DNA from: Escherichia coli
GTDB lineage: Bacteria > Pseudomonadota > Gammaproteobacteria > Enterobacterales > Enterobacteriaceae
NCBI RefSeq assembly: GCF_965641715.1
Contig: NZ_OZ282453.1
DNA: 64,000 nucleotides
Strand: one strand, 5' to 3'
In this document: positions 20,418 to 57,076 of the stretch, in pieces
Position numbering within the stretch: the first letter of the stretch is position 1
Layout: every line of letters starts with the position of its first letter
Notes under the pieces: model-generated
Told to the model about the DNA's origin: nothing
The model's input: only the letters and a program-made list of their open reading frames with translations
Databases searched by the model: none
Program-made: the position numbers and the translations under genes

Positions 20418-22082
20418 TTACTCGCCAACTTTCGCCCAGGTATCACGCAGCCCAACGGTGCGGTTAAATACCGGTTTTTCGGCAGTGGAATGGCGGCTAT
20501 CGAGGCAGAAGTAACCTTCACGCTCAAACTGGAATGCTTTACCCGCAACCGCATCTTTCAGCGACGGTTCAGCAAAGCCCTGTTTGATCACCAGCGATTC
20601 CGGGTTAATCACCGACAGGAAATCATCCGCAGCACCAGGGTTCGGCACACTGAACAGACGGTCATACAAACGGATTTCAACCGGCAGCGCATGTGCCGCG
20701 CTCACCCAGTGAATAACACCTTTGACTTTACGACCATCTGCCGGATCTTTACTTAAGGTATCGGCGTCATAAGTACAGAAGATGGTGGTGATATTACCTT
20801 CGGCATCTTTCTCGACGCGTTCTGCCTTAATCACATAAGCATTACGCAGACGCACTTCTTTACCGAGCACCAGACGTTTGTACTGCTTGTTAGCTTCTTC
20901 GCGGAAATCGGCGCGATCGATCCAAATCTCACCGCTAAACGGCACCTGACGGCTCCCCATTTCCGGTTTGTTCGGATGGTTCGGCATGGTGACCATTTCG
21001 CCTTCGCCCTGATAGTTTTCGATAACCAGTTTCACCGGATCGATAACCGCCATTGCGCGCGGCGCATTTTCGTTGAGATCTTCACGGATGCAGGATTCCA
21101 GCGACGCCATCTCAATGGTGTTGTCCTGCTTGGTCACGCCGATGCGTTTGCAGAACTCACGAATAGAAGCCGCAGTGTAACCACGACGACGCAGACCGGA
21201 AATGGTCGGCATTCGCGGGTCATCCCAGCCTTCAACGTGCTTGTCGGTCACCAGCAGGTTCAGCTTACGCTTGGACATCACAGTGTATTCCAGATTCAGG
21301 CGCGAGAATTCGTACTGGCGCGGGTGAACAGGAATGGTGATGTTGTCCAGCACCCAGTCGTACAGGCGACGGTTGTCCTGGAACTCAAGCGTACACAGAG
21401 AGTGCGTAATACCTTCCAGCGCATCGCTGATGCAATGGGTGAAGTCGTACATCGGGTAGATGCACCACTTGTTGCCAGTCTGGTGGTGTTCAGCAAATTT
21501 AATGCGGTACAGCACCGGATCGCGCATTACGATAAATGGCGACGCCATGTCGATTTTCGCACGCAGGCAGGCTTTACCTTCTTCAAAACCGCCGGTACGC
21601 ATTTTCTCGAACAGCGCCAGGTTCTCTTCAACGCTACGGTCGCGGTACGGGCTGTTTTTACCAGGCTGCGTCAGGGTGCCGCGGTATTCGCGGATCTGTT
21701 CCGGCGTCAGTTCATCAACGTACGCCAGGCCTTTATTGATCAGTTCGATCGCATAGGCGTGGAGCTGATCAAAATAATCGGAGGAGTAACGGACGTTACC
21801 AGACCAGTGAAAACCTAACCACTCAACGTCGTTTTTGATCGAATCGACATACTCGATATCTTCTTTTACCGGGTTAGTGTCGTCGAAACGCAGGTTGCAC
21901 TGGCCTTTATAGTCCTGGGCGATCCCGAAGTTCAGGCAGATAGATTTCGCATGGCCAATATGCAGATAGCCATTCGGCTCCGGCGGGAAACGGGTGTGTA
22001 CTGTGGTGTGCTTACCACTGGCCAGATCTTCATCGATGATCTGACGAATAAAGTTAGTCGGGCGGGCTTCTGCCTCACTCAT
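20418..22082 (-). CDS. glnS: glutaminyl-tRNA synthetase (554 aa)
   Basis: [17 protein letters not shown]...; class I HIGH (HIGH) and KMSKS-like (VMSKR) motifs. Confidence 0.97.
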
Positions 22083-22301
22083 CGTGGATTCCTCAAAGCG
22101 TAAACAACGTATAACGGCGTATGATCTTATAAGCGGGACAGGCTGACAACTGTTAGTTAGCGAAAAAGTGGTTTTGCGTAAGATATTGGGGCGTTTTCTG
22201 CGCTACAGCCAGCAGATCCTCGCGCTGGAGACGTAAGGCCAAACGTCGCCAGCCTGACGCGTTTATTAAATTTCCGGATGAGCTGGCCGCAGAGTCGTAG
22301 A

Positions 22302-23063
22302 TTAATCCGCTATGATTAAACGCGTCGACAAGGACGCCAGCGTTTTGCGCGTCTGCCCATCAAGCTGATTATCCGTAATAATCTCTGTCAGTTCATTAAG
22401 ATGCGCGATATTAAACAGCGACCATGAACCGTATTTTGAGCTGTCAGCCAGGAGAATTTTGCGCGAAGCATGCGCGATAAGATCGCGTTTTAGTGCGGCT
22501 TTCTCTTCCGTGGGTGCTGTAATACCCTTTTCAAGATCCCAGCTGTTACAGCTTAAAAATGCCACGTCCGGCCAGGTATTTTGCAGCATTTTACGACCAT
22601 GTTCGCCAATGCAGGACTGGCTGGAGTCGTCGATACGTCCGCCGATAATCGTCACTTCAATCTGCTTGAATTCAGCCAAAAAAAGCGCGATATGCAGGTC
22701 GCTGGTGATCACGCGAAGCGGTAAATGGGTAATCTGCCGCGCAAGTTCAATCATTGTCGTACCGGCATCAAGGACGACGGAATCCCCCGCTTTGACCATT
22801 GACGCCGCTGCGCTGGCGATGGCATGTTTTTCCGCCAGGCTGCGCTGCATTTTCTCATGGGTAGTCGGTTGGGTAGGAATAAACCGGTTGAGGGTCACAC
22901 CGCCGTGTGTACGGCTGATAACACCCTGCTCATCGAGTTTTATCAGGTCTCGACGAATCGTGGCCGGCGACGCATTGGTTACCGCCACCAGCTCATCAAC
23001 GGTGACCAGATTATGGCTTTTCAGGTAATCCATGATCTGCTCTAACCGGTTATATCCCTTCAT
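22302..23063 (-). CDS. DeoR/GlpR-family transcriptional regulator (253 aa)
   Basis: N-terminal HTH ([30 protein letters not shown]) and C-terminal DeoR-type sugar-phosphate-binding domain; last gene of a three-gene leftward operon. Confidence 0.8.
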
Positions 23064-23064
23064 T

Positions 23065-24051
23065 TTATTCTCGCGAAATCTGCATTGCTAACTGGATGGA
23101 AACTGCCATGCTCTCAGACTTGGCTTTTCCTGTCCAGGCAATATCAAATGCGGTGCCGTGGTCGGCAGAAGTACGAATAAATGGCAACCCGGCGGTGATA
23201 TTCACCCCATCATAAAATCCAAGCAGTTTTAAAGGGATATGCCCCTGATCGTGGTACATAGCCACCACCATATCGAATAGCCCTTCATGGCACTGCATGA
23301 ACACGGTATCTGGCGGGCACGGGCCAGTAACATCAATATCTTCGGCCTGCATTGCTTCAATCGCAGGTGCGATAATCTCGATTTCCTCAGTGCCGAATAA
23401 ACCGTGTTCCCCTGCATGTGGATTTACACCCGCCACGGCAATACGCGGACGCTCAATACCGACACGTTTCAGGAAGTGGTTCGCAACTCGAATAACCGTT
23501 TTGACCCTTTCACCGTTCAATGTATCCAGGAATTTACGCAGTGAGATGTGAGTCGAAATATGGATAACCTTGAGCTTATCGGTATAGAGCACCATCGCGT
23601 ACTCTTTGCTGCCGGTAAGATGGGCCAGCAATTCCGTATGGCCAGGATAGTTATGCCCGCCAAGATGCAGCGCTTCTTTATTCAACGGCGCAGTGGCTAT
23701 GGCTTTCACCTCGCCTGATAAGGCCAGGGCCGTTGCACGTTTGATACAGCGATACGCTAAATCGCCTGCCGCAGCCTGTACCACTCCGGGTGTCAGCGCA
23801 TCGGGGTTAGCCAGCGGCTCATCCATCACGTTAATCACGCCGGGAGCAAAGTGGGCGTCGCACACCTTTTGAATGACGCGTAACTCTGTCTGCGGCGTGA
23901 TATTCATCGCCATAATACGTCGTAACGTGCGCACACAGCCCACCACCACCACCGGGGCACCAGCAAGCCCGGCTTCGCTCAGGGATTTAATAATGATCTC
24001 CGGGCCAATACCCGCCGGATCGCCCATCGTTACCGCAATAATATTATTCAC
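23065..24051 (-). CDS. PdxA-family NAD-dependent dehydrogenase, PdxA2-like (328 aa)
   Basis: Whole-length resemblance to 4-hydroxythreonine-4-phosphate dehydrogenase ([23 protein letters not shown]); starts 8 nt inside the upstream kinase gene. Confidence 0.75.
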
Positions 24052-25282
24052 TACGCTTCTCCTCGATAAAATTCAGAACCTGATGCAACGTGGTCTCATC
24101 GCCAAACCCACCGGCTTTCGTCATCACCGAACGGGACCAGACGCCGCCCAGAAAGTGACCGTATGGAACGCACTGCGCCACCTTCCCCGTAATACGAAAC
24201 CCGGTCGCACCTAACGCACTGGCTGTTGCCATTGCGACATCGCCACCAGAGAGATAAAGGGCATCAGGGGTGACACGAAGCAGAACTTGCCGGGTAAGTT
24301 CGCCAAGAAACCGGCAAATTTTTTCCCCAAGCGCAGCGCGACTCATCTGCCAACGCTGGCAAAGGGTGTCGATATGGTGCCTTGCTTCAGAATCGGTACA
24401 GGTGTGGACAATGCAGTGGTCCCCTTTCTGTAAGGCCTGCACAATACGCGCGTCATAGCCCCTGGCGTTGCCTGCCAGAATGTGTTCAACATCGACGTAT
24501 ATCTGTGTGATACGTGAGTGTGAATGCAGTGTGGCGATCTGCCGTTGAGCGATTTCGCTCATTGAACCAATAATGGCCAGCACGGTGGGTGGCGGCATAA
24601 TCGCCGAGCGCCGGGCAACGGCATCACAAATACCAGCGGAGCCGACCAGCAGCAGCGGTTGTTTAGCCTGCATCACAGCGGCAGCGATGCAATCCAGGTC
24701 GCTGTCCGTCTGCGCATCCATCACCCCAATCCACGGTTGCTCACGAGACAAATGGCTGAGCTCAGAAACTGTAACGGGCTGGCATGGAATGGCCGTCTGC
24801 AACCGAATGATGTCCGCAATTCGTGCGCTCATTACCGGGGTTTTTGGATCGCTGGCAAACTCGGTTTCCGTTAGCCGCACGCCGTTTACCCGACACTCAC
24901 CGTCCACCGTGGTCCTTCCCACCTGGGGAAATGCGGGGGCAACCACTGCGCCCGTTATGCCGCATGCCTGCATCAGGGCTTCAATTTCTGCGCCGATATT
25001 CCCTCGCAGCGTGGAATCTATCTTTTTAATCATGAGCGGCGGGTTATTCGCCAGAGGGAGATGACTCATCAGCGAGGTCATTTTCATCGCGGCCTGCTTA
25101 GGATCCATCGCCCGACTGTCGCTATTAATCACCCATACGCTTGCATCACCGTGATAAGGCGTTGCAAAGGCCACATCAACCGTATGTCCCACCTGCGCCA
25201 GGCTTACTCCTGCGTCGTTGGCCCCTGTGAAATCATCGGCAACGACGAGAATGCTCGGCTTAGTGATTCCCTTTTCCATCAT
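24044..25282 (-). CDS. four-carbon acid-sugar kinase family protein, DUF1537/OtnK-DtnK-like (about 412 aa)
   Basis: N-terminal hallmark ILVVADDFTGANDAGV; start set at the ATGATG doublet preceded by GGAG (track ORF runs to a TTG at 25321). Confidence 0.7.
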   Translation of the reverse strand: MMEKGITKPSILVVADDFTGANDAGVSLAQVGHTVDVAFATPYHGDASVWVINSDSRAMDPKQAAMKMTSLMSHLPLANNPPLMIKKIDSTLRGNIGAEIEALMQACGITGAVVAPAFPQVGRTTVDGECRVNGVRLTETEFASDPKTPVMSARIADIIRLQTAIPCQPVTVSELSHLSREQPWIGVMDAQTDSDLDCIAAAVMQAKQPLLLVGSAGICDAVARRSAIMPPPTVLAIIGSMSEIAQRQIATLHSHSRITQIYVDVEHILAGNARGYDARIVQALQKGDHCIVHTCTDSEARHHIDTLCQRWQMSRAALGEKICRFLGELTRQVLLRVTPDALYLSGGDVAMATASALGATGFRITGKVAQCVPYGHFLGGVWSRSVMTKAGGFGDETTLHQVLNFIEEKRSE

Positions 25283-25448
25283 CACTCCAGGTTGTTTTAT
25301 GATGACAATGATTATATTCAATCACGATTGATTAAATGTGAGCAAGTTCAAGTTATTAATCACTCGAATAAATTATAAAATTAGGCCATGTTACGTAGAC
25401 AACGGTATTTTGAATGATTGATTTCAATCACGAGAAGAGAGGTTATTT
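25283..25448. promoter_or_regulatory. divergent promoter/operator region of the island
   Basis: AT-rich 166-bp spacer between divergent operons containing TCAATCAC-GATTGATT (25318-25333) and its permuted inverted-repeat form GATTGATT-TCAATCAC (25416-25432). Confidence 0.5.
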
Positions 25449-26606
25449 GTGGTAATTATCAATAGCACGATACTGAGCGGCGCAGGCGCTATCCCTTCCC
25501 TGACGTCGCTCTTACCCGGCGTCAGAAAATTGCTGCTGGTCACAGACAGCAATATTGCGCAGCTTAACGGAGTGCAGCAGATTCGCGCCTTACTGGAAAA
25601 GCACTGCCCGCAGGTGAGCGTTATCGATAATGTGCCTGCAGAGCCTACGCATCATGATGTGCGCCAGCAAATGGCGACCCTCGGCAACGCGTCGTTTGAT
25701 GTAGTAGTGGGCGTCGGCGGCGGCAGCGTGCTGGATGTCGCAAAACTGTTGTCGGTGCTTTGTCACCCCGATTCACCGGGGCTGGATGCGCTGCTTGCCG
25801 GTGAAAAACCGACGCAGCGGGTGCAATCATGGTTGATTCCTACAACCGCCGGTACCGGCTCAGAAGCCACGCCAAATGCGATTCTGGCGATCCCTGAACA
25901 AAGCACGAAGGTGGGTATTATTTCTCCGGTGCTGCTACCGGATTATGTGGCACTTTTCCCCGAGCTGACCACCAGCATGCCCGCACATATTGCAGCGTCT
26001 ACGGGCATTGATGCGCTTTGTCACTTACTGGAGTGTTTTACCGCGACCGTGGCAAATCCGGTCAGCGATAACGCGGCGCTAACCGGGTTAAGTAAGCTTT
26101 TCCGGCATATTCAACCCGCCGTGAACGATCCTCAGGATCTGCGCGCAAAACTGGAAATGCTGTGGGCGTCTTACTATGGCGGCGTAGCGATAACCCATGC
26201 GGGCACGCACCTGGTCCATGCGCTCTCCTACCCGTTAGGCGGCAAATATCACCTGCCGCACGGTGTGGCGAATGCCATCTTGCTGGCACCGTGCATGGCG
26301 GTTGTTCGCCCCTGGGCGGTCGAGAAATTTGCCCAGGTCTGGGATTGCATTCCCGATGCGGATACATCCTTGAGCGCGGAAGAGAAATCTCACGCTCTGG
26401 TGGCCTGGCTACAGGCATTAGTCAATCAACTCAAGCTGCCCAACAATCTCGCGGATCTTGGCGTACCGCCAGATGATATTACGTCTCTTAGCGCGGCGGC
26501 ACTGAACGTGAAGCGCCTGATGAACAATTCCCCCTGCCAACTGAATCAGCGGGACGTGCAGGCCATTTACCAAACGCTGTTTCCGCAACATCAATTTAAG
26601 GAGTAA
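25449..26606 (+). CDS. iron-containing (group III) alcohol dehydrogenase (385 aa, GTG start)
   Basis: GGGS NAD(P)-binding motif (VVGVGGGSVLDVAKL) and His-rich metal site (HALSYPLGGKYHLPHG); RBS agagagg upstream. Confidence 0.75.
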   Translation: MVIINSTILSGAGAIPSLTSLLPGVRKLLLVTDSNIAQLNGVQQIRALLEKHCPQVSVIDNVPAEPTHHDVRQQMATLGNASFDVVVGVGGGSVLDVAKLLSVLCHPDSPGLDALLAGEKPTQRVQSWLIPTTAGTGSEATPNAILAIPEQSTKVGIISPVLLPDYVALFPELTTSMPAHIAASTGIDALCHLLECFTATVANPVSDNAALTGLSKLFRHIQPAVNDPQDLRAKLEMLWASYYGGVAITHAGTHLVHALSYPLGGKYHLPHGVANAILLAPCMAVVRPWAVEKFAQVWDCIPDADTSLSAEEKSHALVAWLQALVNQLKLPNNLADLGVPPDDITSLSAAALNVKRLMNNSPCQLNQRDVQAIYQTLFPQHQFKE

Positions 26607-26609
26607 ATC

Positions 26610-27497
26610 ATGCCAAAAACCATTGAAGGTGTATTAACCGCCATCGTCACCCCGTTTACCGCGACCGGCGTCCTGAATCTCCCGGCGTTAAAAGTGCAGG
26701 TTAATCGCCAACTGGAAGCCGGTAACGCGATTTTTTGCGGCGGCACCAACGGCGAGTTTTTTGTGTTGAACGAACAGGAGAAGCTCAGCGTTACGCAAAC
26801 CTGCGTGGATGAAGTGGCTGGCCGCGCACCGGTCGTGGCGCACATTGGTGAGATCTCGACGCGCGAAACCATTCGTCTGGGTCAGCAGATTGAAAAACTG
26901 GGCGTTGATGCGGTATCGGTCATTACCCCGTACTTTGTACCGCTAAAACAGGAAGAGCTGATTGCCCATTACACCGCAATTGCCGACGCACTAAGCATTC
27001 CCATGTTTCTCTATAACATCCCGGCCCGCACCGGCAATACGATTCAGCCGGAAACCGCGCGCGCTCTGGCGTCGCATCCCAATATCATTGGGATTAAAGA
27101 CAGCGCCGGAAGCTACGAAAGCCTGAAGGGTTTTCTCGATGCTGTGCGCAACATTGACGGCTTTAATGTGCTCAACGGCCCGGATTCGCTGATCCATAAA
27201 GGGTTTGTCGAGGGGTGTTCAGCCTGTATTTCCGGGCTCGCCAACGTCGCGCCGCGAGAAATCAATGCCATCTGGTCTCGCTTCCATGCCGGTGATATTG
27301 AAGGATCGTATCAGGCACAGGAGAGTGTGACTGGCCTGCGTACCGATCTTTATAAAGTAGCATTCTCCCCAGCTGCGGTGAAAAAAGCGTTGCAGCTTAT
27401 GGGGCATGATGTTGGTGATAGCCGCTACGCGGTTAATTTCACGCCTGAACAGATCAGCGAGATTCAACAAATTATTCGTCATTATCACATTAATTAA
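26610..27497 (+). CDS. DapA/NanA-family Schiff-base aldolase/lyase (295 aa)
   Basis: GVLTAIVTPF N-terminal motif, GGTNGEF, and Schiff-base lysine context IIGIKDSAG; starts 3 nt after the ADH stop. Confidence 0.75.
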   Translation: MPKTIEGVLTAIVTPFTATGVLNLPALKVQVNRQLEAGNAIFCGGTNGEFFVLNEQEKLSVTQTCVDEVAGRAPVVAHIGEISTRETIRLGQQIEKLGVDAVSVITPYFVPLKQEELIAHYTAIADALSIPMFLYNIPARTGNTIQPETARALASHPNIIGIKDSAGSYESLKGFLDAVRNIDGFNVLNGPDSLIHKGFVEGCSACISGLANVAPREINAIWSRFHAGDIEGSYQAQESVTGLRTDLYKVAFSPAAVKKALQLMGHDVGDSRYAVNFTPEQISEIQQIIRHYHIN

Positions 27498-27556
27498 ATT
27501 AACTCTATTATCCAGCCCGCTATAACGTATAGATAAAGAGAATAAAGGATTACCCC

Positions 27557-28315
27557 ATGTTTTTGTGGTTTATGCAGCCAGATATCTGGCTCACTTTAAT
27601 TACCCTCACCTTTCTGGAAATTATTCTCGGGGTGGATAATATTATTTTTCTTTCACTGGTGGTGGCAAAACTTCCGTTATCACAACAAAATATGGCGCGT
27701 AAACTGGGTTTAAGCTGCGCGATGATTATGCGGATATTATTGCTGATATCCATTGCGTGGCTTTCACATATTACCCAGCCGCTTTTTACCGTGCTGGCGC
27801 TGGAGATTTCGTTCCGCACGTTGATTCTACTCGGGGGCGGGCTGTTCCTGATTTATAAAGCGATACAGGAGATACGCGAAGAGTTGTCGCCCGCGCAGGA
27901 AGACGCGCATGGCAGCGGGTCGCGGCAGCTGTCGCTGTGCGGTGCTATCGTACAGATAATGCTGCTGGATATTGTGTTCAGCCTGGACTCGGTGATCACC
28001 GCCGTCGGCCTTTCTCAGCATATATTTATTATGATTGCTGCCGTCATGATTGCCGTTGGCATCATGATGTTTGCGGCGAAAACCATTGGTGACTTCGTGA
28101 ACGCGACGCCATCGATAAAAATACTGGCGTTAACCTTTTTATTATTTGTCGGCGTATTGTTGGTTGCCGATAGCCTCAATATTCATATTGCCAAAGAGTA
28201 TCTCTACTTCGCGATATTTTTCTCATTAAGCGTGGAGACACTCAATATTTTCCGTGAAAGAAGACATAAAAAAGTTTCGACATCGATCGAAACGCATGAA
28301 TCGAACTCGCATTAA
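27557..28315 (+). CDS. TerC-family integral membrane protein (252 aa)
   Basis: About seven hydrophobic helices with two DN/DS-type motifs (LGVDNIIFLSL, FSLDSVITAVG) typical of TerC/YgdQ-like proteins. Confidence 0.55.
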   Translation: MFLWFMQPDIWLTLITLTFLEIILGVDNIIFLSLVVAKLPLSQQNMARKLGLSCAMIMRILLLISIAWLSHITQPLFTVLALEISFRTLILLGGGLFLIYKAIQEIREELSPAQEDAHGSGSRQLSLCGAIVQIMLLDIVFSLDSVITAVGLSQHIFIMIAAVMIAVGIMMFAAKTIGDFVNATPSIKILALTFLLFVGVLLVADSLNIHIAKEYLYFAIFFSLSVETLNIFRERRHKKVSTSIETHESNSH

Positions 28316-28350
28316 TAAATCTATTACCGACTTTAAGATGGAGTCTAACT

Positions 28351-29520
28351 ATGTCTGTAGCTCTTATTCGTGACGGCGTCATCCGTCCGTCCGAAAATGA
28401 TTCGCATGTGCTTACCGCCATGCTGCCCTCGTCCTGCCCGCAAAACCACGCGGCGAATATTCTGCCTTTGCCGGATGGCGCGTTAATGTGCGTCTGGTTT
28501 GCGGGAACGCAGGAAGGTATTGCCGATATTTCCGTCTGGGGATCGCGGCTGCCCGCTGGCGGAACGCAGTGGAGCGATGCGGTCAAACTGTCCCACGATG
28601 ACACGCGTTCAGAGCAGAACCCGGTACTGTTTCTCGCACCGGATAACGTGCTGTGGCTGCTATGGACCGCACAAATATCCGGTAATCAGGACACCGCCAT
28701 CGTCCGCTACCGTAAGTCAGACGACCTCGGACAAACCTGGGGCGAGATTGCCACGCTGCTCGATAAACCCGGCACGTTCATTCGCCAGCCGATCACGGTG
28801 CTTGATAACGGCAACTGGCTGCTGCCCGTCTTTTATTGCCGTACCCAACCCGGTGAAAAATGGGTCGGCAATGATGATATCAGCGCAGTGAAAATTTCCG
28901 CTGACGGTGGTCACTCATGGCGCGATGTCGAGGTGCCGCAAAGTCTCGGCTGCGTTCATATGAATATCACAATGCTGCACGACGGTACGTTGGCTGCTCT
29001 CTTTCGCAGCCGTTGGGCAGACAACATCTATATCAGCCATTCTGCGGACCACGGCGAGAGCTGGTCGGTGCCGCAAGCAACCGAACTGCCCAACAACAAT
29101 TCGTCTATTCAGGTGACGACGCTTGCCAGCGGTGAGCTGGCGCTGGTGTACAACGCAATGAGTGCGGCAGGCGCAGTAGAACGTCGCGCGTCGCTGTATG
29201 ACGAAATCGACGATGGCGACGACAGTCGCAAAGAACCCACAGCCGTTGGACGCTCCGCTTTCTGGGGTGCCCCGCGCGCGCCGATGACGGTAGCGATTTC
29301 TGCCGATGGCGGGAAAAGCTGGCCGTGGCGGCGCAATCTCGATGAAGGCGATGGCTACTGCATGACCAACAATTCGCTGGAAAAGCTAAATCGCGAGTTC
29401 TCCTACCTCAGTATCAAACAAAGCCCGGACGGTACGCTGCATATCGCTTACACCTGGTGGCGTCAGGCCATCAAGTACGTGCGCATCTCCCCCGAGTGGG
29501 TTAAGGGGCAGGCATTATGA
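28351..29520 (+). CDS. BNR/Asp-box repeat sialidase-like protein, predicted cytoplasmic (389 aa)
   Basis: Four S-x-D-x-G-x-[TS]-W Asp-boxes (SDDLGQTW, SADGGHSW, SADHGESW, SADGGKSW); N-terminal IRP (FRIP-like); no signal peptide. Confidence 0.75.
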   Translation: MSVALIRDGVIRPSENDSHVLTAMLPSSCPQNHAANILPLPDGALMCVWFAGTQEGIADISVWGSRLPAGGTQWSDAVKLSHDDTRSEQNPVLFLAPDNVLWLLWTAQISGNQDTAIVRYRKSDDLGQTWGEIATLLDKPGTFIRQPITVLDNGNWLLPVFYCRTQPGEKWVGNDDISAVKISADGGHSWRDVEVPQSLGCVHMNITMLHDGTLAALFRSRWADNIYISHSADHGESWSVPQATELPNNNSSIQVTTLASGELALVYNAMSAAGAVERRASLYDEIDDGDDSRKEPTAVGRSAFWGAPRAPMTVAISADGGKSWPWRRNLDEGDGYCMTNNSLEKLNREFSYLSIKQSPDGTLHIAYTWWRQAIKYVRISPEWVKGQAL

Positions 29521-29987
29521 TTATCGGGAATCTCAACCATTTGTCACAGGCGGGGCTTCCCGCTGGCGTGAAAAATATTCTGCTGCGCCCGGAATGTTCG
29601 TTACGGGCGTTATCCGCCAGAGAGGACGGTCGCTGGCAACTGGAAGGATGCCGGTGGTTCTGCACGCTGGGCCTTTCAGACACGCAGCCCGCCGATCTCC
29701 GGCATACGGAGTATCACCATCTGTGGGCCGATATTCAGGTGGTGATTGCCGGTTGTGAGGGCATTAATGCGGGGACGCGGCCCGTAGCGCAGGAAAGCGA
29801 TGAAGAACGTAAGCCCGATCTGTTTATCGCCCCATCCCCTGAAAACAGTGTCGCAATCACCTTACACCCCGGTGATTTCGCCGTCTTTATGCCAGAAGAA
29901 CCCCATCAGGCGCTGTGCGCGGTTGGCGCGGCCACGTCAGTACGTAAAGCGGTCTTTAAGGTACCGCGCGACATGCTGGAAGCCTAA
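29517..29987 (+). CDS. YhcH/YjgK/YiaL (DUF386) family protein (156 aa)
   Basis: Size and N-terminal pattern (MIIGNLNHLSQAGLP...) typical of the DUF386 family found in sialic-acid and beta-galactoside operons; ATGA overlap with the BNR gene. Confidence 0.65.
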   Translation: MIIGNLNHLSQAGLPAGVKNILLRPECSLRALSAREDGRWQLEGCRWFCTLGLSDTQPADLRHTEYHHLWADIQVVIAGCEGINAGTRPVAQESDEERKPDLFIAPSPENSVAITLHPGDFAVFMPEEPHQALCAVGAATSVRKAVFKVPRDMLEA

Positions 29988-30000
29988 AAGGAGAGAAAAA

Positions 30001-31281
30001 ATGACAATGGAAATGATCCTGGCATTAGGAATACTGGTCCTGATGATCGTGCTGATCATGTCGGACAAAATGCCCTTTGGCGCACCGCCACTGCTTGCGT
30101 GTTTATTGCTGGTTGTCTCGGGGCTGTCGACGGTTCAACAGGCTTTTGCCGGATTCGTCAATCCAAGCGTGGTGATGATTGCAGGGTTTATGGTGGTGAT
30201 GGCTGCGCTACAAAAAACCCGGCTTATCAGCAACGTTAAATCTGCGATGATAAGCCTGGTCAATAAAGGCAGTTACCGCAGTTATGGGCTGTTGTTAGTC
30301 ATCGTTATGCTGGGCGCCAGTCTTGCCGGCACCGGCGCGACGGGTTATTACGTGCTGATTCTGTCTCTGGTATCCACCATTCCGTACAGTAAAAAGCTAC
30401 CAACATCGAAATTGATGATGCCACTGGGATTTGCCACCAACCATCCGCTTCTTCCTATCAATCTCGCGCTTCTCTTTGGCGTCACGGCGACCGTACTCGA
30501 AACAGCCGGTTTTCATCAGGAGATTTCGATGGGGCGCTTTGCGCTGGTGAATCTCGTCATGTCAGCGGCTTTTCTGGCGTGGAGTCTGATTGCCTACCGT
30601 TTTCTTCCGGATCATCCCATTGCGGATGCTTCCGAGGATGCGCTGGCCGCACGCGAAGAAACGTTTAACGCCCTTCCTGCCTGGAAAGAGTATTGCACCA
30701 TCGCCGCATTCGCCGTCAGCGTTATCGGCATGATGCTGATGAATATGCTGGGTAATATCGCCTTCGTTATTCCAGGCCTTGCGGGTGCGTTTGTTCTGAT
30801 GATCGATGTACTGGACTTTAAAGAAGTTCGCGATCATATGGGGGCACCGGTCATTTTAATGATGGCGGGGGTGATCGGTGTGGCTGATGCGCTGGCTGGC
30901 ACCGGCTTTACGGCAATGGTAGGCGATGCCGTTGCAGGTGTGCTCGGGTCTGGCGTCTCACCGTTTGTATTTATTGTCGCCTTTGCTTTACTTACCAGTA
31001 CCTGCGCCACCTTCACGGGTTCGAATATGGGGTCAGTCTATATTTTTGCCCCCATCGCCATTGCCGCCTGTACTAGCCTTGGGCTTAACCCGACCGCTGC
31101 CGCGATTGCGGTGGTGATTTCTGGCTGGAATGGCGGCTATATGCCTATTGACGGAATGCCAGCCATGATCCTCGGAATGGGGAAATACAAACTTCCCGAA
31201 TTCTGGGTGTTCTCTGTACCAATGTATCTCATCCGCATTCTGGCGCTTTGTGCAGGCGCTGTTTTTATCTTCCCAATGTAA
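30001..31281 (+). CDS. anion permease of the ion-transporter superfamily, GntP/CitMHS-like (426 aa)
   Basis: ATG at 30001 preceded by aaaggagag; 10-12 hydrophobic segments with two-repeat architecture; the track ORF (29800) carries a spurious upstream extension. Confidence 0.6.
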   Translation: MTMEMILALGILVLMIVLIMSDKMPFGAPPLLACLLLVVSGLSTVQQAFAGFVNPSVVMIAGFMVVMAALQKTRLISNVKSAMISLVNKGSYRSYGLLLVIVMLGASLAGTGATGYYVLILSLVSTIPYSKKLPTSKLMMPLGFATNHPLLPINLALLFGVTATVLETAGFHQEISMGRFALVNLVMSAAFLAWSLIAYRFLPDHPIADASEDALAAREETFNALPAWKEYCTIAAFAVSVIGMMLMNMLGNIAFVIPGLAGAFVLMIDVLDFKEVRDHMGAPVILMMAGVIGVADALAGTGFTAMVGDAVAGVLGSGVSPFVFIVAFALLTSTCATFTGSNMGSVYIFAPIAIAACTSLGLNPTAAAIAVVISGWNGGYMPIDGMPAMILGMGKYKLPEFWVFSVPMYLIRILALCAGAVFIFPM

Positions 31282-31290
31282 TCTCAGACA

Positions 31291-31326
31291 AAAAAAGCGG
31301 CAGAGAAGATCCCTGCCGCTTTTTAT
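31291..31326. terminator. bidirectional intrinsic terminator at the island/nagE junction
   Basis: aaaaaagcggcagagaagatccctgccgcttttt: 7-bp GC stem flanked by an A-run and a T-run. Confidence 0.7.
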
Positions 31327-31329
31327 TGT

Positions 31330-31362
31330 TGAATGCGACGCTGCCGTGTCGCATCAGGCATG
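31330..31362. repeat. REP-like palindromic fragment
   Basis: gaatgcgacgctgccgtgtcgcatcaggcatg. Confidence 0.45.
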
Positions 31363-31369
31363 AAGCAGA

Positions 31370-33316
31370 TTACTTTTTGATTTCATACAGCGGTGTTTGA
31401 CCCGCCACAACATGGCCCTGAGCTTTAATGATCAAGCCACTGAAATCGTCGATATTACTGCAAACCACTGGGCTAATCATCGAGCGGGCGTTAGCGTTCA
31501 GGTAATCCAGATCCATTTCCAGAATCGGTTGTCCTGCGCTTACCTGCGCGCCCTCTTCCACCAGACGTTTAAAGCCTTTACCTTCCAGCGCTACGGTATC
31601 GATACCCATATGGACGACGATCTCCGCGCCTTTTTCGGTTTCCAGGCAGAACGCGTGGTTGGTGTTGAAGATTTTCACGATTGTCCCTGCGGCTGGTGAT
31701 ACGACGATTTTATCTGTCGGTTTCACCGCCACACCGTCACCCACTGCTTTGCTGGCGAATGCTTCGTCAGGAACCTGATCCAGTGCCACGACATCACCGG
31801 TAATCGGCGATACCAGCTCCGCGATAGATACCGCGTTTGGTACAGCCTGCGGTTTTGCTACAGGAGCGGCAGTTGCCGGAGTTGCTTCAGCAGAGGCAGC
31901 TGCTACCGGGCCACGGGCAACGACTTTCTTCATCGCATCGCCGATGGATTCTGCTTTCGCGCCAACAATCACCTGAATAGTCTGTTTGTTCAGTTTTACT
32001 ACACCAGAAGCACCCAGACGTTTACACATCGTATCGTTAACGCGGGCAGAGTCAGCCACTGTAAGGCGCAGACGGGTGATACAGGCGTCAATTGCTTTCA
32101 GGTTGTCAGTGCCGCCAACCGCAGCAATATAGTTGGTCGCCAGTTGATTGAGGCCTTCTTCAGTGTTGCTGTTGGCTTCTTCAGTAACGATCTCGTCTTC
32201 TTTATCTTCACGACCCGGCGTTTTCAGGTTGAACATGCGGATAACCAAACTGAACACCACGAAGTAGATAGCGAAGAAGACAACACCCATCACCAGCAGC
32301 ATCCAGACGTTCTGGCTGGCGGCCGGCAGGTTATACATCAACGCGTAGTCGATAGCCCCCGCAGAGAAAGAGAAGCCGGCATGGATACCCAGCAGCGTTG
32401 CCACAAACAGGCTGATACCGGTCAGCAGTGCGTGCAGGAGGTACAGCAGCGGTGCAAGGAACATGAACAGGAATTCCAGCGGCTCAGTCACACCGGTCAG
32501 GAACGCAGTAACAGCAACAGAAAGCAGCATCCCGCCAACCATCGGACGACGCTCTTTCGGTGCTGCGAAGTACATCGCCAGCGCCGCCCCCGGCAGACCG
32601 AACATCATGATCGGGAAGAAGCCGGACATGAACATCCCCGCGGTGCCGTCACCGGCATAGAAGCGGTTGATATCACCGTGGAAAACCGTACCCGCCGCGT
32701 TGGTGAATTCACCAATCTGGAACCAGGCGATGGTGTTCAGCACCTGATGCAGACCGGTTGGGATCAGCAGACGGTTGATGAAACCAAAGATACCGGAACC
32801 CAGCGCGCCCGCAGAAACGATCCACTCGCCGCCTGCATGGATAGCGTGCTGTACCGGCGGCCAGACGTAACCAAAAATGGCCGCCAGCACCAGACAGAAG
32901 AAGCCGGTGGCGATCGGCACAAAGCGTTTGCCGCCGAAGAAGCTCAGGAAGTCCGGCAGTTTAATATCGGACCAACGGTTATAGGCTGCGCCACCAACCA
33001 GACCGGTAATGATACCCGCCAGTACACCCATGTTAATTTCTGGGTTGATGGTCACCATCGCTTTGGTTAACACAAAGTAACCTACCGCACCCGCCAGCGC
33101 CGCCGCACCTGCGCTGTCTTTCGACCAGCTGGATGCCACACCGATGGCGAAGATTAATGCGAGGTTATCAAAAATCGCACCGCCCGCCTGGGCAATAAAC
33201 GCAACGTTAAGTAAATCTGGCTGACCGAATCGCAGCAACAGTGCCGCCACCGGCAGCACCGCGATAGGGAGCTGTAACGCCCTACCGAGTCGCTGGAAAA
33301 AACCTAAAATATTCAT
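31370..33316 (-). CDS. nagE: PTS N-acetylglucosamine-specific EIICBA component (648 aa)
   Basis: MNILGFFQRLGRALQLPIAVLP...; EIIC membrane domain, EIIB cysteine region, EIIA C-terminus. Confidence 0.96.
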   Translation of the reverse strand: MNILGFFQRLGRALQLPIAVLPVAALLLRFGQPDLLNVAFIAQAGGAIFDNLALIFAIGVASSWSKDSAGAAALAGAVGYFVLTKAMVTINPEINMGVLAGIITGLVGGAAYNRWSDIKLPDFLSFFGGKRFVPIATGFFCLVLAAIFGYVWPPVQHAIHAGGEWIVSAGALGSGIFGFINRLLIPTGLHQVLNTIAWFQIGEFTNAAGTVFHGDINRFYAGDGTAGMFMSGFFPIMMFGLPGAALAMYFAAPKERRPMVGGMLLSVAVTAFLTGVTEPLEFLFMFLAPLLYLLHALLTGISLFVATLLGIHAGFSFSAGAIDYALMYNLPAASQNVWMLLVMGVVFFAIYFVVFSLVIRMFNLKTPGREDKEDEIVTEEANSNTEEGLNQLATNYIAAVGGTDNLKAIDACITRLRLTVADSARVNDTMCKRLGASGVVKLNKQTIQVIVGAKAESIGDAMKKVVARGPVAAASAEATPATAAPVAKPQAVPNAVSIAELVSPITGDVVALDQVPDEAFASKAVGDGVAVKPTDKIVVSPAAGTIVKIFNTNHAFCLETEKGAEIVVHMGIDTVALEGKGFKRLVEEGAQVSAGQPILEMDLDYLNANARSMISPVVCSNIDDFSGLIIKAQGHVVAGQTPLYEIKK

Positions 33317-39986: not shown

Positions 39987-40063
39987 GGCTACGTAGCTCA
40001 GTTGGTTAGAGCACATCACTCATAATGATGGGGTCACAGGTTCGAATCCCGTCGTAGCCACCA
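39987..40063 (+). tRNA. metT: tRNA-Met (elongator, anticodon CAT)
   Basis: ggctacgtagctcagttggttagagc...gtcgtagccacca; cloverleaf with CAT anticodon and encoded CCA. Confidence 0.95.
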
Positions 40064-40071
40064 TCTTTTTT

Positions 40072-40156
40072 GCGGGAGTGGCGAAATTGGTAGACGCACC
40101 AGATTTAGGTTCTGGCGCCGCAAGGTGTGCGAGTTCAAGTCTCGCCTCCCGCACCA
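40072..40156 (+). tRNA. leuW: tRNA-Leu (anticodon TAG), class II with long variable arm
   Basis: gcgggagtggcgaaattggtagacgc...ctcgcctcccgcacca, 85 nt. Confidence 0.93.
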
Positions 40157-40179
40157 TTCACCAGAAAGCGTTGTACGGA

Positions 40180-40254
40180 TGGGGTATCGCCAAGCGGTAA
40201 GGCACCGGTTTTTGATACCGGCATTCCCTGGTTCGAATCCAGGTACCCCAGCCA
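40180..40254 (+). tRNA. glnU: tRNA-Gln (anticodon TTG)
   Basis: tggggtatcgccaagcggtaaggcaccggtttttgataccgg...cccagcca. Confidence 0.93.
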
Positions 40255-40288
40255 TCTTCTTCGAGTAAGTGGTTCACCGCCCGGTTAT

Positions 40289-40363
40289 TGGGGTATCGCC
40301 AAGCGGTAAGGCACCGGTTTTTGATACCGGCATTCCCTGGTTCGAATCCAGGTACCCCAGCCA
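40289..40363 (+). tRNA. glnW: tRNA-Gln (anticodon TTG), identical copy of glnU
   Basis: Identical 75-nt sequence to the glnU copy. Confidence 0.93.
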
Positions 40364-40378
40364 TCGAAGAAACAATCT

Positions 40379-40455
40379 GGCTACGTAGCTCAGTTGGTTA
40401 GAGCACATCACTCATAATGATGGGGTCACAGGTTCGAATCCCGTCGTAGCCACCA
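40379..40455 (+). tRNA. metU: tRNA-Met (elongator, anticodon CAT), identical copy of metT
   Basis: Identical 77-nt sequence to metT. Confidence 0.93.
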
Positions 40456-40501
40456 AATTCTGAGTGTGTCGAATATGTTCGGCAAATTCAAAACCAATTT
40501 G

Positions 40502-40576
40502 TTGGGGTATCGCCAAGCGGTAAGGCACCGGATTCTGATTCCGGCATTCCGAGGTTCGAATCCTCGTACCCCAGCC
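40502..40576 (+). tRNA. glnV: tRNA-Gln (anticodon CTG)
   Basis: tggggtatcgccaagcggtaaggcaccggattctgattccgg...cccagcca. Confidence 0.93.
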
Positions 40577-40614
40577 AATTTATTCAAGACGCTTACCTTG
40601 TAAGTGCACCCAGT

Positions 40615-40689
40615 TGGGGTATCGCCAAGCGGTAAGGCACCGGATTCTGATTCCGGCATTCCGAGGTTCGAATCCTCGTACCCCAGCCA
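40615..40689 (+). tRNA. glnX: tRNA-Gln (anticodon CTG), identical copy of glnV
   Basis: Identical 75-nt sequence to glnV. Confidence 0.93.
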
Positions 40690-48172: not shown

Positions 48173-49081
48173 ATGCAATTACGTAAACCTGCCACAGCAA
48201 TCCTCGCCCTGGCGCTTTCCGCAGGACTGGCACAGGCAGATGACGCCGCCCCGGCAGCAGGCAGTACGCTGGACAAAATCGCCAAAAACGGTGTGATTGT
48301 CGTCGGTCACCGTGAATCTTCAGTACCTTTCTCTTATTACGACAATCAGCAAAAAGTGGTGGGTTATTCGCAGGATTACTCCAACGCCATTGTTGAAGCA
48401 GTGAAAAAGAAACTCAACAAACCGGACTTGCAGGTGAAACTGATTCCGATCACCTCACAAAACCGTATTCCTCTTCTGCAAAACGGCACTTTCGATTTTG
48501 AATGTGGTTCTACCACCAACAACGTCGAACGCCAAAAACAGGCGGCTTTCTCTGACACTATTTTCGTGGTCGGTACGCGCCTGTTGACCAAAAAGGGCGG
48601 CGATATCAAAGATTTTGCCGACCTGAAAGACAAAGCCGTAGTCGTCACTTCCGGCACTACCTCTGAAGTTTTGCTCAACAAACTGAATGAAGAGCAAAAA
48701 ATGAATATGCGCATCATCAGCGCCAAAGATCACGGTGACTCTTTCCGCACCCTGGAAAGCGGTCGTGCCGTTGCCTTTATGATGGATGATGCCCTGCTGG
48801 CCGGTGAACGTGCGAAAGCGAAGAAACCAGACAACTGGGATATCGTCGGCAAGCCGCAGTCTCAGGAAGCCTACGGTTGCATGTTGCGTAAAGACGATCC
48901 GCAGTTCAAAAAGCTGATGGATGACACTATCGCTCAGGTGCAGACCTCCGGCGAAGCGGAAAAATGGTTTGATAAGTGGTTCAAAAATCCAATTCCGCCG
49001 AAAAACCTGAACATGAATTTCGAACTGTCAGACGAAATGAAAGCACTGTTCAAAGAACCGAATGACAAAGCACTGAACTAA
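48173..49081 (+). CDS. gltI: glutamate/aspartate ABC transporter periplasmic binding protein (302 aa)
   Basis: Starts MQLRKPATAILALALSAGLAQA (signal peptide); the track ORF carries a 25-codon upstream extension. Confidence 0.95.
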   Translation: MQLRKPATAILALALSAGLAQADDAAPAAGSTLDKIAKNGVIVVGHRESSVPFSYYDNQQKVVGYSQDYSNAIVEAVKKKLNKPDLQVKLIPITSQNRIPLLQNGTFDFECGSTTNNVERQKQAAFSDTIFVVGTRLLTKKGGDIKDFADLKDKAVVVTSGTTSEVLLNKLNEEQKMNMRIISAKDHGDSFRTLESGRAVAFMMDDALLAGERAKAKKPDNWDIVGKPQSQEAYGCMLRKDDPQFKKLMDDTIAQVQTSGEAEKWFDKWFKNPIPPKNLNMNFELSDEMKALFKEPNDKALN

Positions 49082-49084
49082 TTA

Positions 49085-49240
49085 CAAGAACCAGGGGCGG
49101 AAATTCTAGCCCTCTCGATTGTTACGTAGCACGGACAGACTATACGCCTGATGGTCGTTCCCCATCGGGCCTGAAAACCGCAATACGCTGGGTAACAATC
49201 TTCGAGGGTAGCAGTTAACGCTGCTACCCTCTTTTTTCTG
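49085..49240 (+). ncRNA. sroC: SroC-type sRNA region in the gltI-gltJ spacer (processed from the gltIJKL mRNA)
   Basis: Position equivalent to the known SroC locus; spacer ends in a strong hairpin gagggtagcagttaacgctgctaccctctttttt (about 49204-49236); exact ends not determinable from sequence. Confidence 0.45.
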
Positions 49241-55708: not shown

Positions 55709-56412
55709 AGGTCGCTCACATCCTTAAGCGTTACCGGGCATTCAGGCTGGACAGTTAATGGCTGCCAGGGAAGCGTGGCATAGAAACGATCGCTTCCCGC
55801 TGCCAGTTCTTCGAACATACGACTCCCGGCGCTATCGTATTTGTACAGGGTTAGCGCCTCGCGTAGCGAAGTGTTGTCTTCGCACTGAGAAGATTGCCAG
55901 TAGAGACGCCCTAGTGAATAGGCAGAAAAATAGTGCATCCAGCTGTGATAGTAATGGTGAGCTCGTACATAGACGCGCGATTGCAGCCATAAACTCTCGT
56001 CTTCCGTCAGCCACTTGTTGAGCACACCGACCCGTGACAGAAACCCCATTCGAACATAATCCCAAGCTTTGATTCCCCCTTCTCCACAGCACATAGCGGT
56101 TTGGGCAACGAATTGGGTATAAATCAACCCTCTCTCCGAGCCACCAGCAATTAATGCTTTCCACTCTTCAGGGGAAGAGCGATGCCATGTCAGATATAAG
56201 CCAGCTAAATCATTAGCATGACCATCATCAGTCATCTGATAAATAGTCTGAATTAAATCATCACGATTATTTATTCCCCAGGATGATGAGAGATCGAATT
56301 CTTTTATCCCGGTATACATTTTTGGCGAGTCATGCGCGGGTTTGCAACCCTGATTAAGTATTTCCATGGGCGCAGAAAGCGCAAAAAGAAGATATTGTTC
56401 TTCCTTATTCAT
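55705..56412 (-). CDS. ybeU: DUF1266 protein (235 aa), paralog of YbeR
   Basis: 4-nt overlap with djlC; high similarity to the 58501-59208 ORF. Confidence 0.88.
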
Positions 56413-56512
56413 TTGTTAATAATCCCTTAAATGCATTAACTGACTACTTTTTATTATTGATGAGTATAAACTTGACGCTTTCAAAATAAAAAGAAAATCG
56501 AAGCATTCACAC

Positions 56513-57067
56513 ATGAATAAAAAATTAATGTATATATTCGCAATTTTTATAGTTGCAGCAATTACCTGTATTAGCCAACCCAAGAAAACGACGTTGCGTG
56601 ATAAAGCCATGGTGAATTATGCCTTTGATTATTTAAGCTCACCGGGCAGTCTTCCATTCACCACGGCAGCCACGGAGCTTTCCGCGATTCATGGTCACTC
56701 AACGTCGCAATATCGCCTTGGAGAATTTTATCTTCATGGTAGCGACGGTAAACCACTGGATTATACACAGGCGAGATACTGGTATGAGCAATCAGCGGAA
56801 CAGGAAAATCCACGCGCGCAAAGTAAACTGGGGTGGATCTACCTCAAAGGTCTGGGGGTCAAACCCGACACCCGTAAAGCAATTCTCTGGTATAAGGAAG
56901 CAGCTGAACAAGGGTATGCTCATGCTCAATATACTTTAGGTTTGATCTACAGAAATGGCTCAGGTATTAATGTTAACCATTATGAATCTCAAAAATGGTT
57001 AAAACTGGCCGCCAAACAACATTACAAAAATGCGGAAAGATTACTTGCCGGGCTTCCCGCACATTAA
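56513..57067 (+). CDS. ybeT: Sel1-repeat protein with N-terminal signal/anchor (184 aa)
   Basis: Repeated Sel1/TPR-like units ([18 protein letters not shown] etc.). Confidence 0.88.
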
Positions 57068-57076
57068 CGTCGACTG

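Follow-up and report, generated by a model that had tools for sequence, protein, structure and literature searches.

The subject of this study is a nine-gene accessory island located between glnS and nagE of Escherichia coli, at positions 22167-31286 of a 64,000-nucleotide stretch of contig NZ_OZ282453.1 (this whole stretch is referred to as the window). Taken as a whole, the island is best explained as a repressor-controlled catabolic module for an acidic sugar of the 3-deoxy-2-ulosonic type, with 3-deoxy-D-lyxo-heptulosaric acid (Dha) as the best-fitting substrate; a probability of roughly 0.4 is given to this reading. The general architecture, comprising uptake, hydrolysis, cleavage by a lyase, a redox step and a kinase/PdxA2 pair with pyruvate and dihydroxyacetone phosphate (DHAP) as products, is considered probable, while Dha as the particular compound was arrived at by chemical inference and is proposed tentatively. 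The protein families are familiar ones, with a front part resembling the sialic acid (nan) genes, a middle part resembling glucarate catabolism and a DtnK/PdxA2 back end; their combination and its substrate are undescribed. The nine open reading frames (ORFs) are tightly packed, all intact and arranged as a leftward operon of three and a rightward operon of six genes:

22167-31286, unstranded: whole accessory island, nine genes (comparison with island-free E. coli)
22302-23063, minus strand: DeoR/GlpR-family transcription regulator, last gene of the leftward operon (NCBIfam family-level matches; RefSeq name)
23065-24051, minus strand: PdxA2-type D-threonate 4-phosphate dehydrogenase, decarboxylating, with DHAP as product (NCBIfam NF002891)
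24044-25279, minus strand: DUF1537 four-carbon acid-sugar kinase of the DtnK type (NCBIfam NF047819, D-threonate kinase)
25449-26606, plus strand: iron-containing alcohol dehydrogenase (Fe-ADH), proposed D-threuronate (aldehyde-acid) reductase (NCBIfam family-level matches)
26610-27497, plus strand: DapA/NanA-family class I (Schiff-base) aldolase, proposed keto-deoxy-ulosarate lyase (NCBIfam, residue alignment)
27557-28315, plus strand: TerC-family membrane protein (Pfam TerC, 2.6e-45)
28351-29520, plus strand: cytoplasmic sialidase-fold (BNR_2) protein of 389 amino acids, proposed ketosidase for an ulosonic-type sugar (Pfam BNR_2, E = 1.4e-62)
29517-29987, plus strand: YhcH/YjgK/YiaL (DUF386) protein, proposed anomerase or ring-opening helper (TIGR00022)
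30001-31281, plus strand: IT-superfamily (SLC13/DASS/CitMHS-like) anion permease, proposed importer of dicarboxylate sugars (Pfam; RefSeq 'SLC13 family permease')

All genes named in an initial annotation of the window (DUF1537 kinase, PdxA2, BNR protein, YhcH protein, NanA/DapA-family lyase, Fe-ADH and anion permease) are present and intact. The span given there, 24044-31281, contains the named genes with the exception of pdxA2, which lies outside for all but 8 bp; the regulator gene is outside as well, and the TerC gene had been overlooked. The same nine genes are found in the RefSeq annotation of E. coli SCU-485. Compared to the SCU-485 allele, all nine are under purifying selection, with ratios of nonsynonymous to synonymous substitutions (dN/dS) of 0.015-0.18 (0.015 for pdxA2) and zero stop codons.

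Downstream end of the pathway and choice of substrate

The kinase scored 531.8 bits against the D-threonate kinase model NF047819 (cut-off 450), the next model being 3-oxo-tetronate kinase with 109 bits, and PdxA2 scored 680.9 bits against NF002891 (cut-off 583). Since both proteins are above their NCBIfam equivalog cut-offs, the downstream end of the pathway is fixed at D-tetronate, and the two genes are predicted to encode the tetronate-to-DHAP pair that the initial annotation had taken them for. DtnK (DUF1537) and PdxA2 are reportedly the D-threonate catabolic pair of Salmonella, where they form a stand-alone cluster with a DeoR-type gene. As in Salmonella, the genes of the island pair overlap (8 bp at 24044-24051, same strand), a gene for a DeoR-family regulator is located next to them and DHAP would be the end product. 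In contrast to Salmonella, no tetronate transporter belongs to the island pair, which is joined, across phyla, to a BNR/lyase/ADH module that would make D-threonate intracellularly. The orthologues in the B2 allele of the island are 40% (kinase) and 75% (PdxA2) identical to the Salmonella enzymes (PMC12928451). The regulator matched the AgaR, YgbI and GlpR models with approximately 170 bits each, all below the equivalog cut-offs. Within the module, kinase and PdxA are fused to one ORF of about 766 amino acids in Ralstonia solanacearum (L002:5115-7415) and in Paraburkholderia or Trinickia (loci L080, L081, L083 and L086).

The best NCBIfam matches of the Fe-ADH were ErcA, lactaldehyde reductase, 4-hydroxybutyrate dehydrogenase and sulfoacetaldehyde reductase (approximately 190-220 bits, all below the cut-offs); the nearest named families act on small polar aldehydes, including succinic semialdehyde, which is reduced. 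Since the downstream end is D-tetronate and the sole redox enzyme of the island is an alcohol/aldehyde oxidoreductase, the lyase is expected to release a C4 aldehyde-acid, which would then be reduced, and the substrate should therefore be a C7 2-keto-3-deoxy dicarboxylic sugar. To our knowledge, Dha is the one natural sugar of this kind. Its carbons C4 to C6 have D-lyxo configuration, as those of 3-deoxy-D-manno-octulosonic acid (Kdo), so that cleavage between C3 and C4 would yield D-threuronate (stereochemistry derived from the accepted structure). Because the threo C4 chain is C2-symmetric, reduction of the aldehyde group of D-threuronate would give D-threonate, the substrate of DtnK and PdxA2.

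Other sugars were considered and rejected. According to their established structures, Kdo is cleaved to D-arabinose, 2-keto-3-deoxynononic acid (KDN) and the sialic acids to a C6 fragment or hexoses, and keto-deoxy-glucarate to a C3 fragment. The 3-deoxy-heptulosonates yield a tetrose; its aldehyde group would have to be oxidised, and the E. coli island encodes no enzyme for such a step.

The lyase scored below the cut-offs of the specific models of its family (dapA TIGR00674, 189.6 bits, cut-off 206.15; nanA NF003164, 148.4 bits, cut-off 281; nanA TIGR00683, 114.3 bits, cut-off 382). The Schiff-base residue K163 and the catalytic Y135 are invariant in all 51 orthologues and align with K161/Y133 of DapA and K165/Y137 of NanA; the GTNGE motif is conserved. 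The Arg position typical of dihydrodipicolinate synthase (DHDPS, motif YNIPARTG) is occupied by Arg in 36 and by Lys in eight of the orthologues and is basic in 44 of 51. The corresponding residue of DHDPS, Arg138, is the one that binds aspartate semialdehyde, itself a C4 aldehyde-acid, by its carboxylate. The lyase thus shares with DapA the fold, the Schiff-base Lys, the catalytic Tyr, the GTxGE motif and the Arg of YN(V/I)PxRTG, and the parallel extends to the substrates, with a C4 aldehyde-acid as aldehyde partner of DapA and an open-chain product which is, like Dha, a C7 2-oxo diacid. The lyase differs from DapA in that its gene is always located beside catabolic genes, in an island that 81% of E. 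coli lack, and in that the proposed direction is cleavage rather than condensation. A true DapA of lysine biosynthesis, the assignment against which the initial annotation had set its reading, is ruled out by the score below the TIGR00674 cut-off and the location in an accessory island.

From these data we infer the enzymatic steps, their order and the substrate as follows. The SLC13-like permease, whose Pfam matches (CitMHS, 77 bits; Na_sulph_symp, 48 bits) belong to a superfamily that holds di- and tricarboxylate carriers, would import the acidic sugar or a small ketoside of it. The cytoplasmic BNR protein would release the ulosonic-type acid, and the YhcH protein would accelerate ring opening. 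The latter scored 97 bits against TIGR00022 (cut-off 45.5) and 94.3 bits against the NanQ anomerase model NF040884 (below the cut-off of 160), and its gene overlaps the BNR gene by 4 bp. The DapA-like Schiff-base aldolase would cut between C3 and C4 to form pyruvate and the C4 aldehyde-acid, which would be reduced to D-threonate by the Fe-ADH, phosphorylated at C4 by DtnK and converted to DHAP by oxidative decarboxylation via PdxA2. Dha itself could be scavenged after its release by primary degraders or by mild hydrolysis.

The same logic, one carbon shorter, is found in the D-glucarate/galactarate route of E. coli (GarL aldolase, GarR tartronate-semialdehyde reductase and GarK glycerate kinase), where a keto-deoxy aldarate is split into pyruvate and an aldehyde-acid, which is converted to a hydroxy-acid and phosphorylated. 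The Gar route uses a class II metal aldolase, a C3 intermediate and a beta-hydroxyacid dehydrogenase, while the island encodes a class I DapA-family aldolase and an Fe-ADH and would proceed via C4. Furthermore, the Gar route has no hydrolase or anomerase step, and the last step of the island pathway would be an oxidative decarboxylation.

Conservation of the module in other genomes

For a genome-neighbourhood comparison, as proposed in the initial annotation, 85 other loci with a BNR homologue (47-95% identity) were collected from plasmid records and one genome per species, and neighbours within 10 kb were considered. The genome scan was seeded with a narrower BNR alignment; the broad BNR alignment had no stretch conserved enough. 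The five core genes (BNR, DapA-like lyase, Fe-ADH, DUF1537 kinase and PdxA) occur together in 60-63 of the 85 loci (approximately 74%). PdxA, Fe-ADH and the DapA-like lyase were each found near BNR in 63 loci, the DUF1537 kinase in 60, a DeoR-family regulator in 41 and a YhcH protein in 36.

These loci span Alpha-, Beta- and Gammaproteobacteria as well as Firmicutes, and their gene orders vary. The carriers are mostly plant-associated, soil or gut bacteria and include Rhizobium, Sinorhizobium, Agrobacterium (pAt), Ralstonia, Burkholderia, Pantoea, Pectobacterium, Dickeya and Erwinia, furthermore Vibrio, Lonepinella, Bacillus, Paenibacillus, Megasphaera (gut), the Klebsiella oxytoca group and Enterobacter. 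Single co-directional operons are present in Paenibacillus peoriae, Megasphaera, Lonepinella and Bacillus, and two metagenomic contigs with BNR homologues of just 38-48% identity contain the same gene set, also co-directional. NCBIfam annotation of the extra neighbours in distant loci gave mostly unrelated proteins (bgl phosphotransferase system, Mfd, CoA-disulfide reductase).

Four transporter types accompany the module, with the enzymes unchanged: a solute:sodium symporter (SSS) in most relatives, a tripartite ATP-independent periplasmic (TRAP) transporter in four loci and the two metagenomic contigs, a Dpp-type ABC transporter in rhizobia and Agrobacterium, and the SLC13-like permease. A carboxylate as ligand is in line with the TRAP systems. 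With its counterpart in the same module of Paenibacillus ginsengihumi (L055:11337-12623), the permease shares 76% identity, as against only 31-62% for the other proteins there, which suggests that the permease gene moved between phyla within the module. The TerC gene lies inside the rightward catabolic operon. Among the loci compared, the module includes TerC only in the variant found in E. coli, Pseudocitrobacter, Klebsiella spallanzanii and Kluyvera, and only where the SLC13-like permease takes the place of the usual SSS transporter. In Erwinia, Pantoea and Lucifera (loci L028, L031, L033 and L056), genes for an additional GhrB-like 2-hydroxyacid dehydrogenase and an ACS-family transporter of the major facilitator superfamily (MFS) are located between the lyase and SSS genes. 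A gene for a cytoplasmic protein of glycoside hydrolase family 28 (GH28) is part of the same operon in Erwinia mallotivora; in Pantoea and Bacillus pumilus, one is located close to the module.

The sialidase-fold protein

No signal peptide was found in the BNR protein sequence. In the comparison with glycoside hydrolase family 33 (GH33), the protein showed the six-bladed beta-propeller with Asp-boxes, and its closest structures are ordinary exo-sialidases and a KDNase, in line with a GH33-like fold. The active-site geometry was deduced from profile alignments only. These place R219 on sialidase Arg2, R309 on Arg3, H203 at the position of the Tyr-activating Glu and the invariant E55 one residue off the acid/base Asp of NanI. 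In an alignment made by hand, with the PDG motif of the 1EUR segment as anchor, H33 falls at the Arg1 position of the RIP motif. Y352, also invariant, is part of an "SYP" motif in the expected place of the nucleophile Tyr. Of 17 positions checked, 16 (H33, E55, H203, R219, R309, Y352, R145, R221 and R371 among them) do not vary in any of the 66 orthologues; D224, the remaining one, is Asp in 64 and Glu in two.

The protein is not classed here as a GH33 sialidase, the arginine triad being incomplete (His33 at Arg1) and the Glu position being occupied by His203 in the alignments. Judged from the alignments, the protein is a true sialidase fold in which the putative carboxylate-binding Arg residues and the Tyr are kept and the catalytic centre is predicted to be non-canonical. 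The active-site comparison with sialidases that had been suggested in the initial annotation thus has a divided outcome, with fold, Arg2, Arg3 and Tyr retained and His at the Arg1 and Glu positions. Weak sequence matches to pneumococcal NanC and NanB were also obtained. Some sialidases, among them these two, hydrate or form unsaturated and anhydro sialic acids.

BT1020 from the rhamnogalacturonan II (RG-II) locus of Bacteroides thetaiotaomicron, a GH143 Dha-hydrolase and GH142 arabinofuranosidase, is a large multidomain protein encoded in a polysaccharide utilisation locus; its solved chain comprises 1,081 residues. In contrast, the island BNR protein is a cytoplasmic protein of 389 amino acids encoded in a monomer-catabolic operon.

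Evaluation of Dha as substrate and of alternative explanations

In RG-II, side chain D consists of L-arabinofuranose linked beta1,5 to D-Dha, which is bound ketosidically to O-3 of a backbone galacturonic acid (GalA); this side chain is heat-labile, and rare RG-II sugars are secreted by RG-II degraders, their consumers being not known (bioRxiv 10.64898/2026.03.13.711244). Together, the plant and gut carriers, the GH28 neighbours and the labile side chain D provide circumstantial support for a pectin substrate.

Several observations weigh against the Dha scheme. Dha was assigned by chemical logic alone, and its nutrient value is uncertain, since it is a minor sugar. In most relatives a classical short-chain dehydrogenase/reductase (SDR) and an SSS or TRAP transporter are encoded beside BNR, while the window contains no SDR and the scheme has no need of one. 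Since SSS and TRAP systems might import a monosaccharide-sized acid, a cytoplasmic ketosidase could be left without an obvious substrate; moreover, hydrolase activity is not assured because His is located at both the Arg1 and the Glu position. Some loci comprise only SSS, BNR and SDR, with lyase, kinase and PdxA missing within 10 kb. The GH28 link is restricted to about five of 86 loci, and TerC is given no role in the scheme. Finally, D-erythronate is a possible kinase substrate, since the B2 DtnK orthologue has only the 40% identity to the Salmonella enzyme given above.

The loci with SSS, BNR and SDR only (L022, L023, L025, L026 and L048) belong to the Pantoea rodasii group and Enterobacter cancerogenus. 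Beside them, a tartrate dehydrogenase (TIGR02089, 574 bits), a GH28 protein, a sugar ABC transporter and a sigma-54 activator are encoded, and these neighbours may represent an alternative downstream route.

The same architecture might serve another acidic sugar or small glycoside derived from a plant, algal or bacterial glycan, or a keto-deoxy aldaric acid formed by a dehydratase encoded elsewhere, possibly with D-erythronate as feed. The conserved module and the family assignments do not name a substrate, the SDR, GhrB-like dehydrogenase, second MFS transporter and tartrate dehydrogenase of the relatives hint at chemistry beyond the Dha scheme, and the DtnK orthologue is rather distant from the characterised enzyme. 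We nevertheless consider a different substrate somewhat unlikely: no other natural sugar could be named that gives pyruvate and a D-threo C4 aldehyde-acid via a class I aldolase, and Kdo, KDN, the sialic acids and keto-deoxy-glucarate lead to the fragments listed above.

A second alternative concerns the BNR step only. Instead of being a glycosidase, the BNR protein might act on an imported monomer, by hydrating a 2,3-unsaturated form, by opening an anhydro or lactone form or in a conversion assisted by an SDR. The predominance of SSS and TRAP transporters in the relatives, the nearly constant location of BNR beside a transporter and an SDR, the replacement of Arg1 and of the Tyr-activating Glu by His in all 66 orthologues, and the matches to NanC and NanB with their chemistry are in line with such a function. 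However, the structures nearest to it are those of ordinary exo-sialidases and of a KDNase, the Dpp-type ABC importers of rhizobia are usually for larger ligands, and GH28 in the same Erwinia operon suggests import of a GalA-linked oligomer, so that this variant of the scheme is regarded as unlikely.

The divergent control region

The two operons of the proposed Dha module are separated by 169 bp with the following elements:

25280-25448, unstranded: divergent control region, 169 bp (sequence inspection)
25309-25324, unstranded: palindrome O1, TGATTATATTCAATCA (16 bp, TGATT-N6-AATCA)
25337-25352, unstranded: CRP-like site, TGTGAGCAAGTTCAAG (TGTGA-N6-TCAAG; sequence inspection)
25374-25379, plus strand: -10 element TATAAA (AT-rich block, back-to-back with the minus-strand -10 element)
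25377-25372, minus strand: -10 element TATAAT (AT-rich block)
25415-25430, unstranded: palindrome O2, TGATTGATTTCAATCA (16 bp, TGATT-N6-AATCA)

Relative to the start that the plus-strand -10 element predicts, the CRP-like site is centred at -41.5. The block of O1, CRP-like site and AT-rich sequence is nearly invariant in the orthologous regions of Enterobacterales, Tolumonas and Vibrio, while the proteins encoded there are only 40-80% identical. A generic scan for sigma-70 promoters and terminators did not rise above shuffled controls, and the conserved promoter block was not called by it. Both palindromes resemble the deo operator, TGTTAGAATTCTAACA. Via the two palindromes, the DeoR-family protein would repress both divergent operons, with additional catabolite control exerted through the CRP-like site at approximately -41.5. 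The conserved block fits this combination of a shared DeoR-type repressor and catabolite control, the pairing of regulator and operators being predicted. The conserved operator and promoter motifs, the sole line of evidence in this respect, support a putative co-regulation of both operons.

As stated in the initial annotation, the two arms are joined through a shared divergent control region, which is conserved across genera, and the synteny of BNR, DapA-like lyase, Fe-ADH, kinase and PdxA extends across phyla. This bears on the alternative that two unrelated units are merely adjacent, namely a stand-alone D-threonate operon (deoR-pdxA2-dtnK) and a separate BNR/lyase/ADH operon. In favour of such an arrangement are the stand-alone cluster of Salmonella, the loci with BNR, SSS and SDR but without kinase or PdxA, and the lower divergence of the left arm from the B2 allele (synonymous divergence, dS, 0.04-0.09) compared to the right arm (0.17-0.32). 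On the other hand, the single operons of Paenibacillus, Megasphaera, Lonepinella, Bacillus and the metagenomic contigs contain the kinase and PdxA genes interspersed among those for BNR, lyase and ADH, co-occurrence across phyla is high, no transporter for free D-threonate is encoded in the left arm, and both operons have one conserved operator and promoter block in common. Since the core set recurs across phyla in varied orders, in single operons and with fusions, two unrelated neighbouring operons cannot explain the pattern, and this explanation is considered very improbable.

Comparison with sialic acid catabolism

The sialic acid route (NanH, NanQ/YhcH and NanA) shares three folds with the island as well as the proposed order of release, ring opening and Schiff-base retro-aldol cleavage to pyruvate. 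The island differs from it by lacking NanK, NanE and NanT, by scores below the NanA and NanQ cut-offs, by a cytoplasmic BNR protein with His at two catalytic positions, and by an aldehyde product that would be passed to a reductase and a tetronate kinase instead of an amino-sugar route. That the island is a second scavenging system for sialic or other nonulosonic acids, in which sialidase, NanQ-like anomerase and NanA-like lyase are used in the host, is hardly credible despite the RefSeq names (sialidase family, NanQ/YhcH family), the GH33-like fold and the enrichment in lineages of extraintestinal pathogenic E. coli (ExPEC): the NanA and NanQ equivalog cut-offs are not reached, NanK, NanE and NanT are not among the nine ORFs, the canonical sialidase catalytic set is incomplete in a cytoplasmic protein, the C9 acid would give a C6 amino sugar, unusable by the Fe-ADH/DtnK/PdxA2 arm, rather than a tetronate, and the module occurs most often in bacteria from soil and plants. 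Of the pathway outlined in the initial annotation, the general logic of uptake, hydrolysis, lyase cleavage, redox conversion and kinase/PdxA2 is retained, while the sialic-acid-like nature of the ulosonic substrate had to be given up.

Distribution and origin of the island in E. coli

Compared to the island-free E. coli PapM-32-1, the island is an insertion of 9,120 bp which replaces 35 bp of the empty site. Homology of the flanks stops at 22166 and restarts at 31287, and in PapM-32-1 nagE directly adjoins glnS. The flanking genes in the window are:

20418-22082, minus strand: glnS, left flank of the island
31370-33316, minus strand: nagE, right flank of the island

The glnS gene of the window is 99.2% identical to that of some E. 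coli strains and the far end 99.2% identical to others; PapM-32-1, which has the closest glnS flank among the strains examined, does not carry the island. Neither an integrase nor a tRNA target nor flanking direct repeats were found in 22167-31286 or at the junctions. The GC content is 0.51-0.54 in the bins holding the island (22001-32000), while the 10 kb to either side have 0.49-0.52. An Rfam scan of the island gave zero riboswitches or other RNAs and therefore no yybP-ykoY element ahead of the TerC gene.

Among 5,426 complete E. coli genomes, 1,048 (approximately 19%) carry the island, in every case on the chromosome, and 4,378 do not. The island is enriched in ExPEC lineages. In a comparative paper from 2026 it is named "GR 6 nagE..glnS", listed as uncharacterised and described as common to avian pathogenic (APEC), neonatal meningitis-associated (NMEC) and uropathogenic E. 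coli (UPEC) and the adherent-invasive (AIEC) strain LF82 (PMC12928451). The allele in the window is unlike that of every complete E. coli genome carrying the island; the nearest E. coli alleles have 94.6% nucleotide identity over 24044-31281 and at most 96.2% in the BNR gene.

Elsewhere in the window lie a cluster of seven tRNA genes (39987-40686; Met-Leu-Gln-Gln-Met-Gln-Gln according to the annotation of L087, the orthologous E. coli locus) and matches to the sRNAs sroC (49077-49239) and ES036 (1592-1634), all of them ordinary in E. coli. At approximately 56000-60000 the GC content falls to 0.44; this part corresponds to hscC-djlB-djlC-ybeQ, an ordinary variable region that 3,698 of the 5,426 E. 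coli genomes contain in full length.

Relation to published work and significance

In the literature searched, which did not extend to subscription journals, no paper was found that gives this cluster a substrate or function, in agreement with the initial annotation, where the combination was not recognised as a characterised pathway. The same literature yielded neither a catabolism of Dha nor a link between Dha and threonate, papers on heptulosaric acid being silent on its breakdown. Queries combining DtnK or D-threonate kinase with sialidase returned only the BEN2908 genome paper; those combining DUF1537/PdxA2 with BNR, DapA or YhcH, or asking for pdxA2/dapA3 of S. meliloti, returned nothing on the cluster; and the guessed CFT073 locus tags c0763-c0768 gave only catalogue-number noise. 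The cluster is not mentioned in a 2026 paper on L-threonate dehydrogenase.

The module is widespread and under purifying selection, yet without an assigned substrate, and Dha is a named and cheaply testable hypothesis. If Dha is wrong, the module is still a well-defined orphan pathway, the known downstream end of which narrows the search. That the island represents the first catabolic pathway for Dha, a C7 dicarboxylic sugar unique to RG-II and some algal walls, with all its consequences, is put forward with more reserve than the substrate itself. If true, the DtnK/PdxA2 route would gain the natural source of D-threonate that it has lacked so far, and the BNR protein would found a new glycoside hydrolase family with a sialidase fold and a His/His-modified catalytic centre. 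E. coli, mainly of ExPEC-rich lineages, and plant-associated bacteria would then cross-feed on a pectin sugar made available by primary degraders such as Bacteroides and Flavobacterium, and a gap in the recycling of the rarest pectin sugars in gut and soil would be closed.

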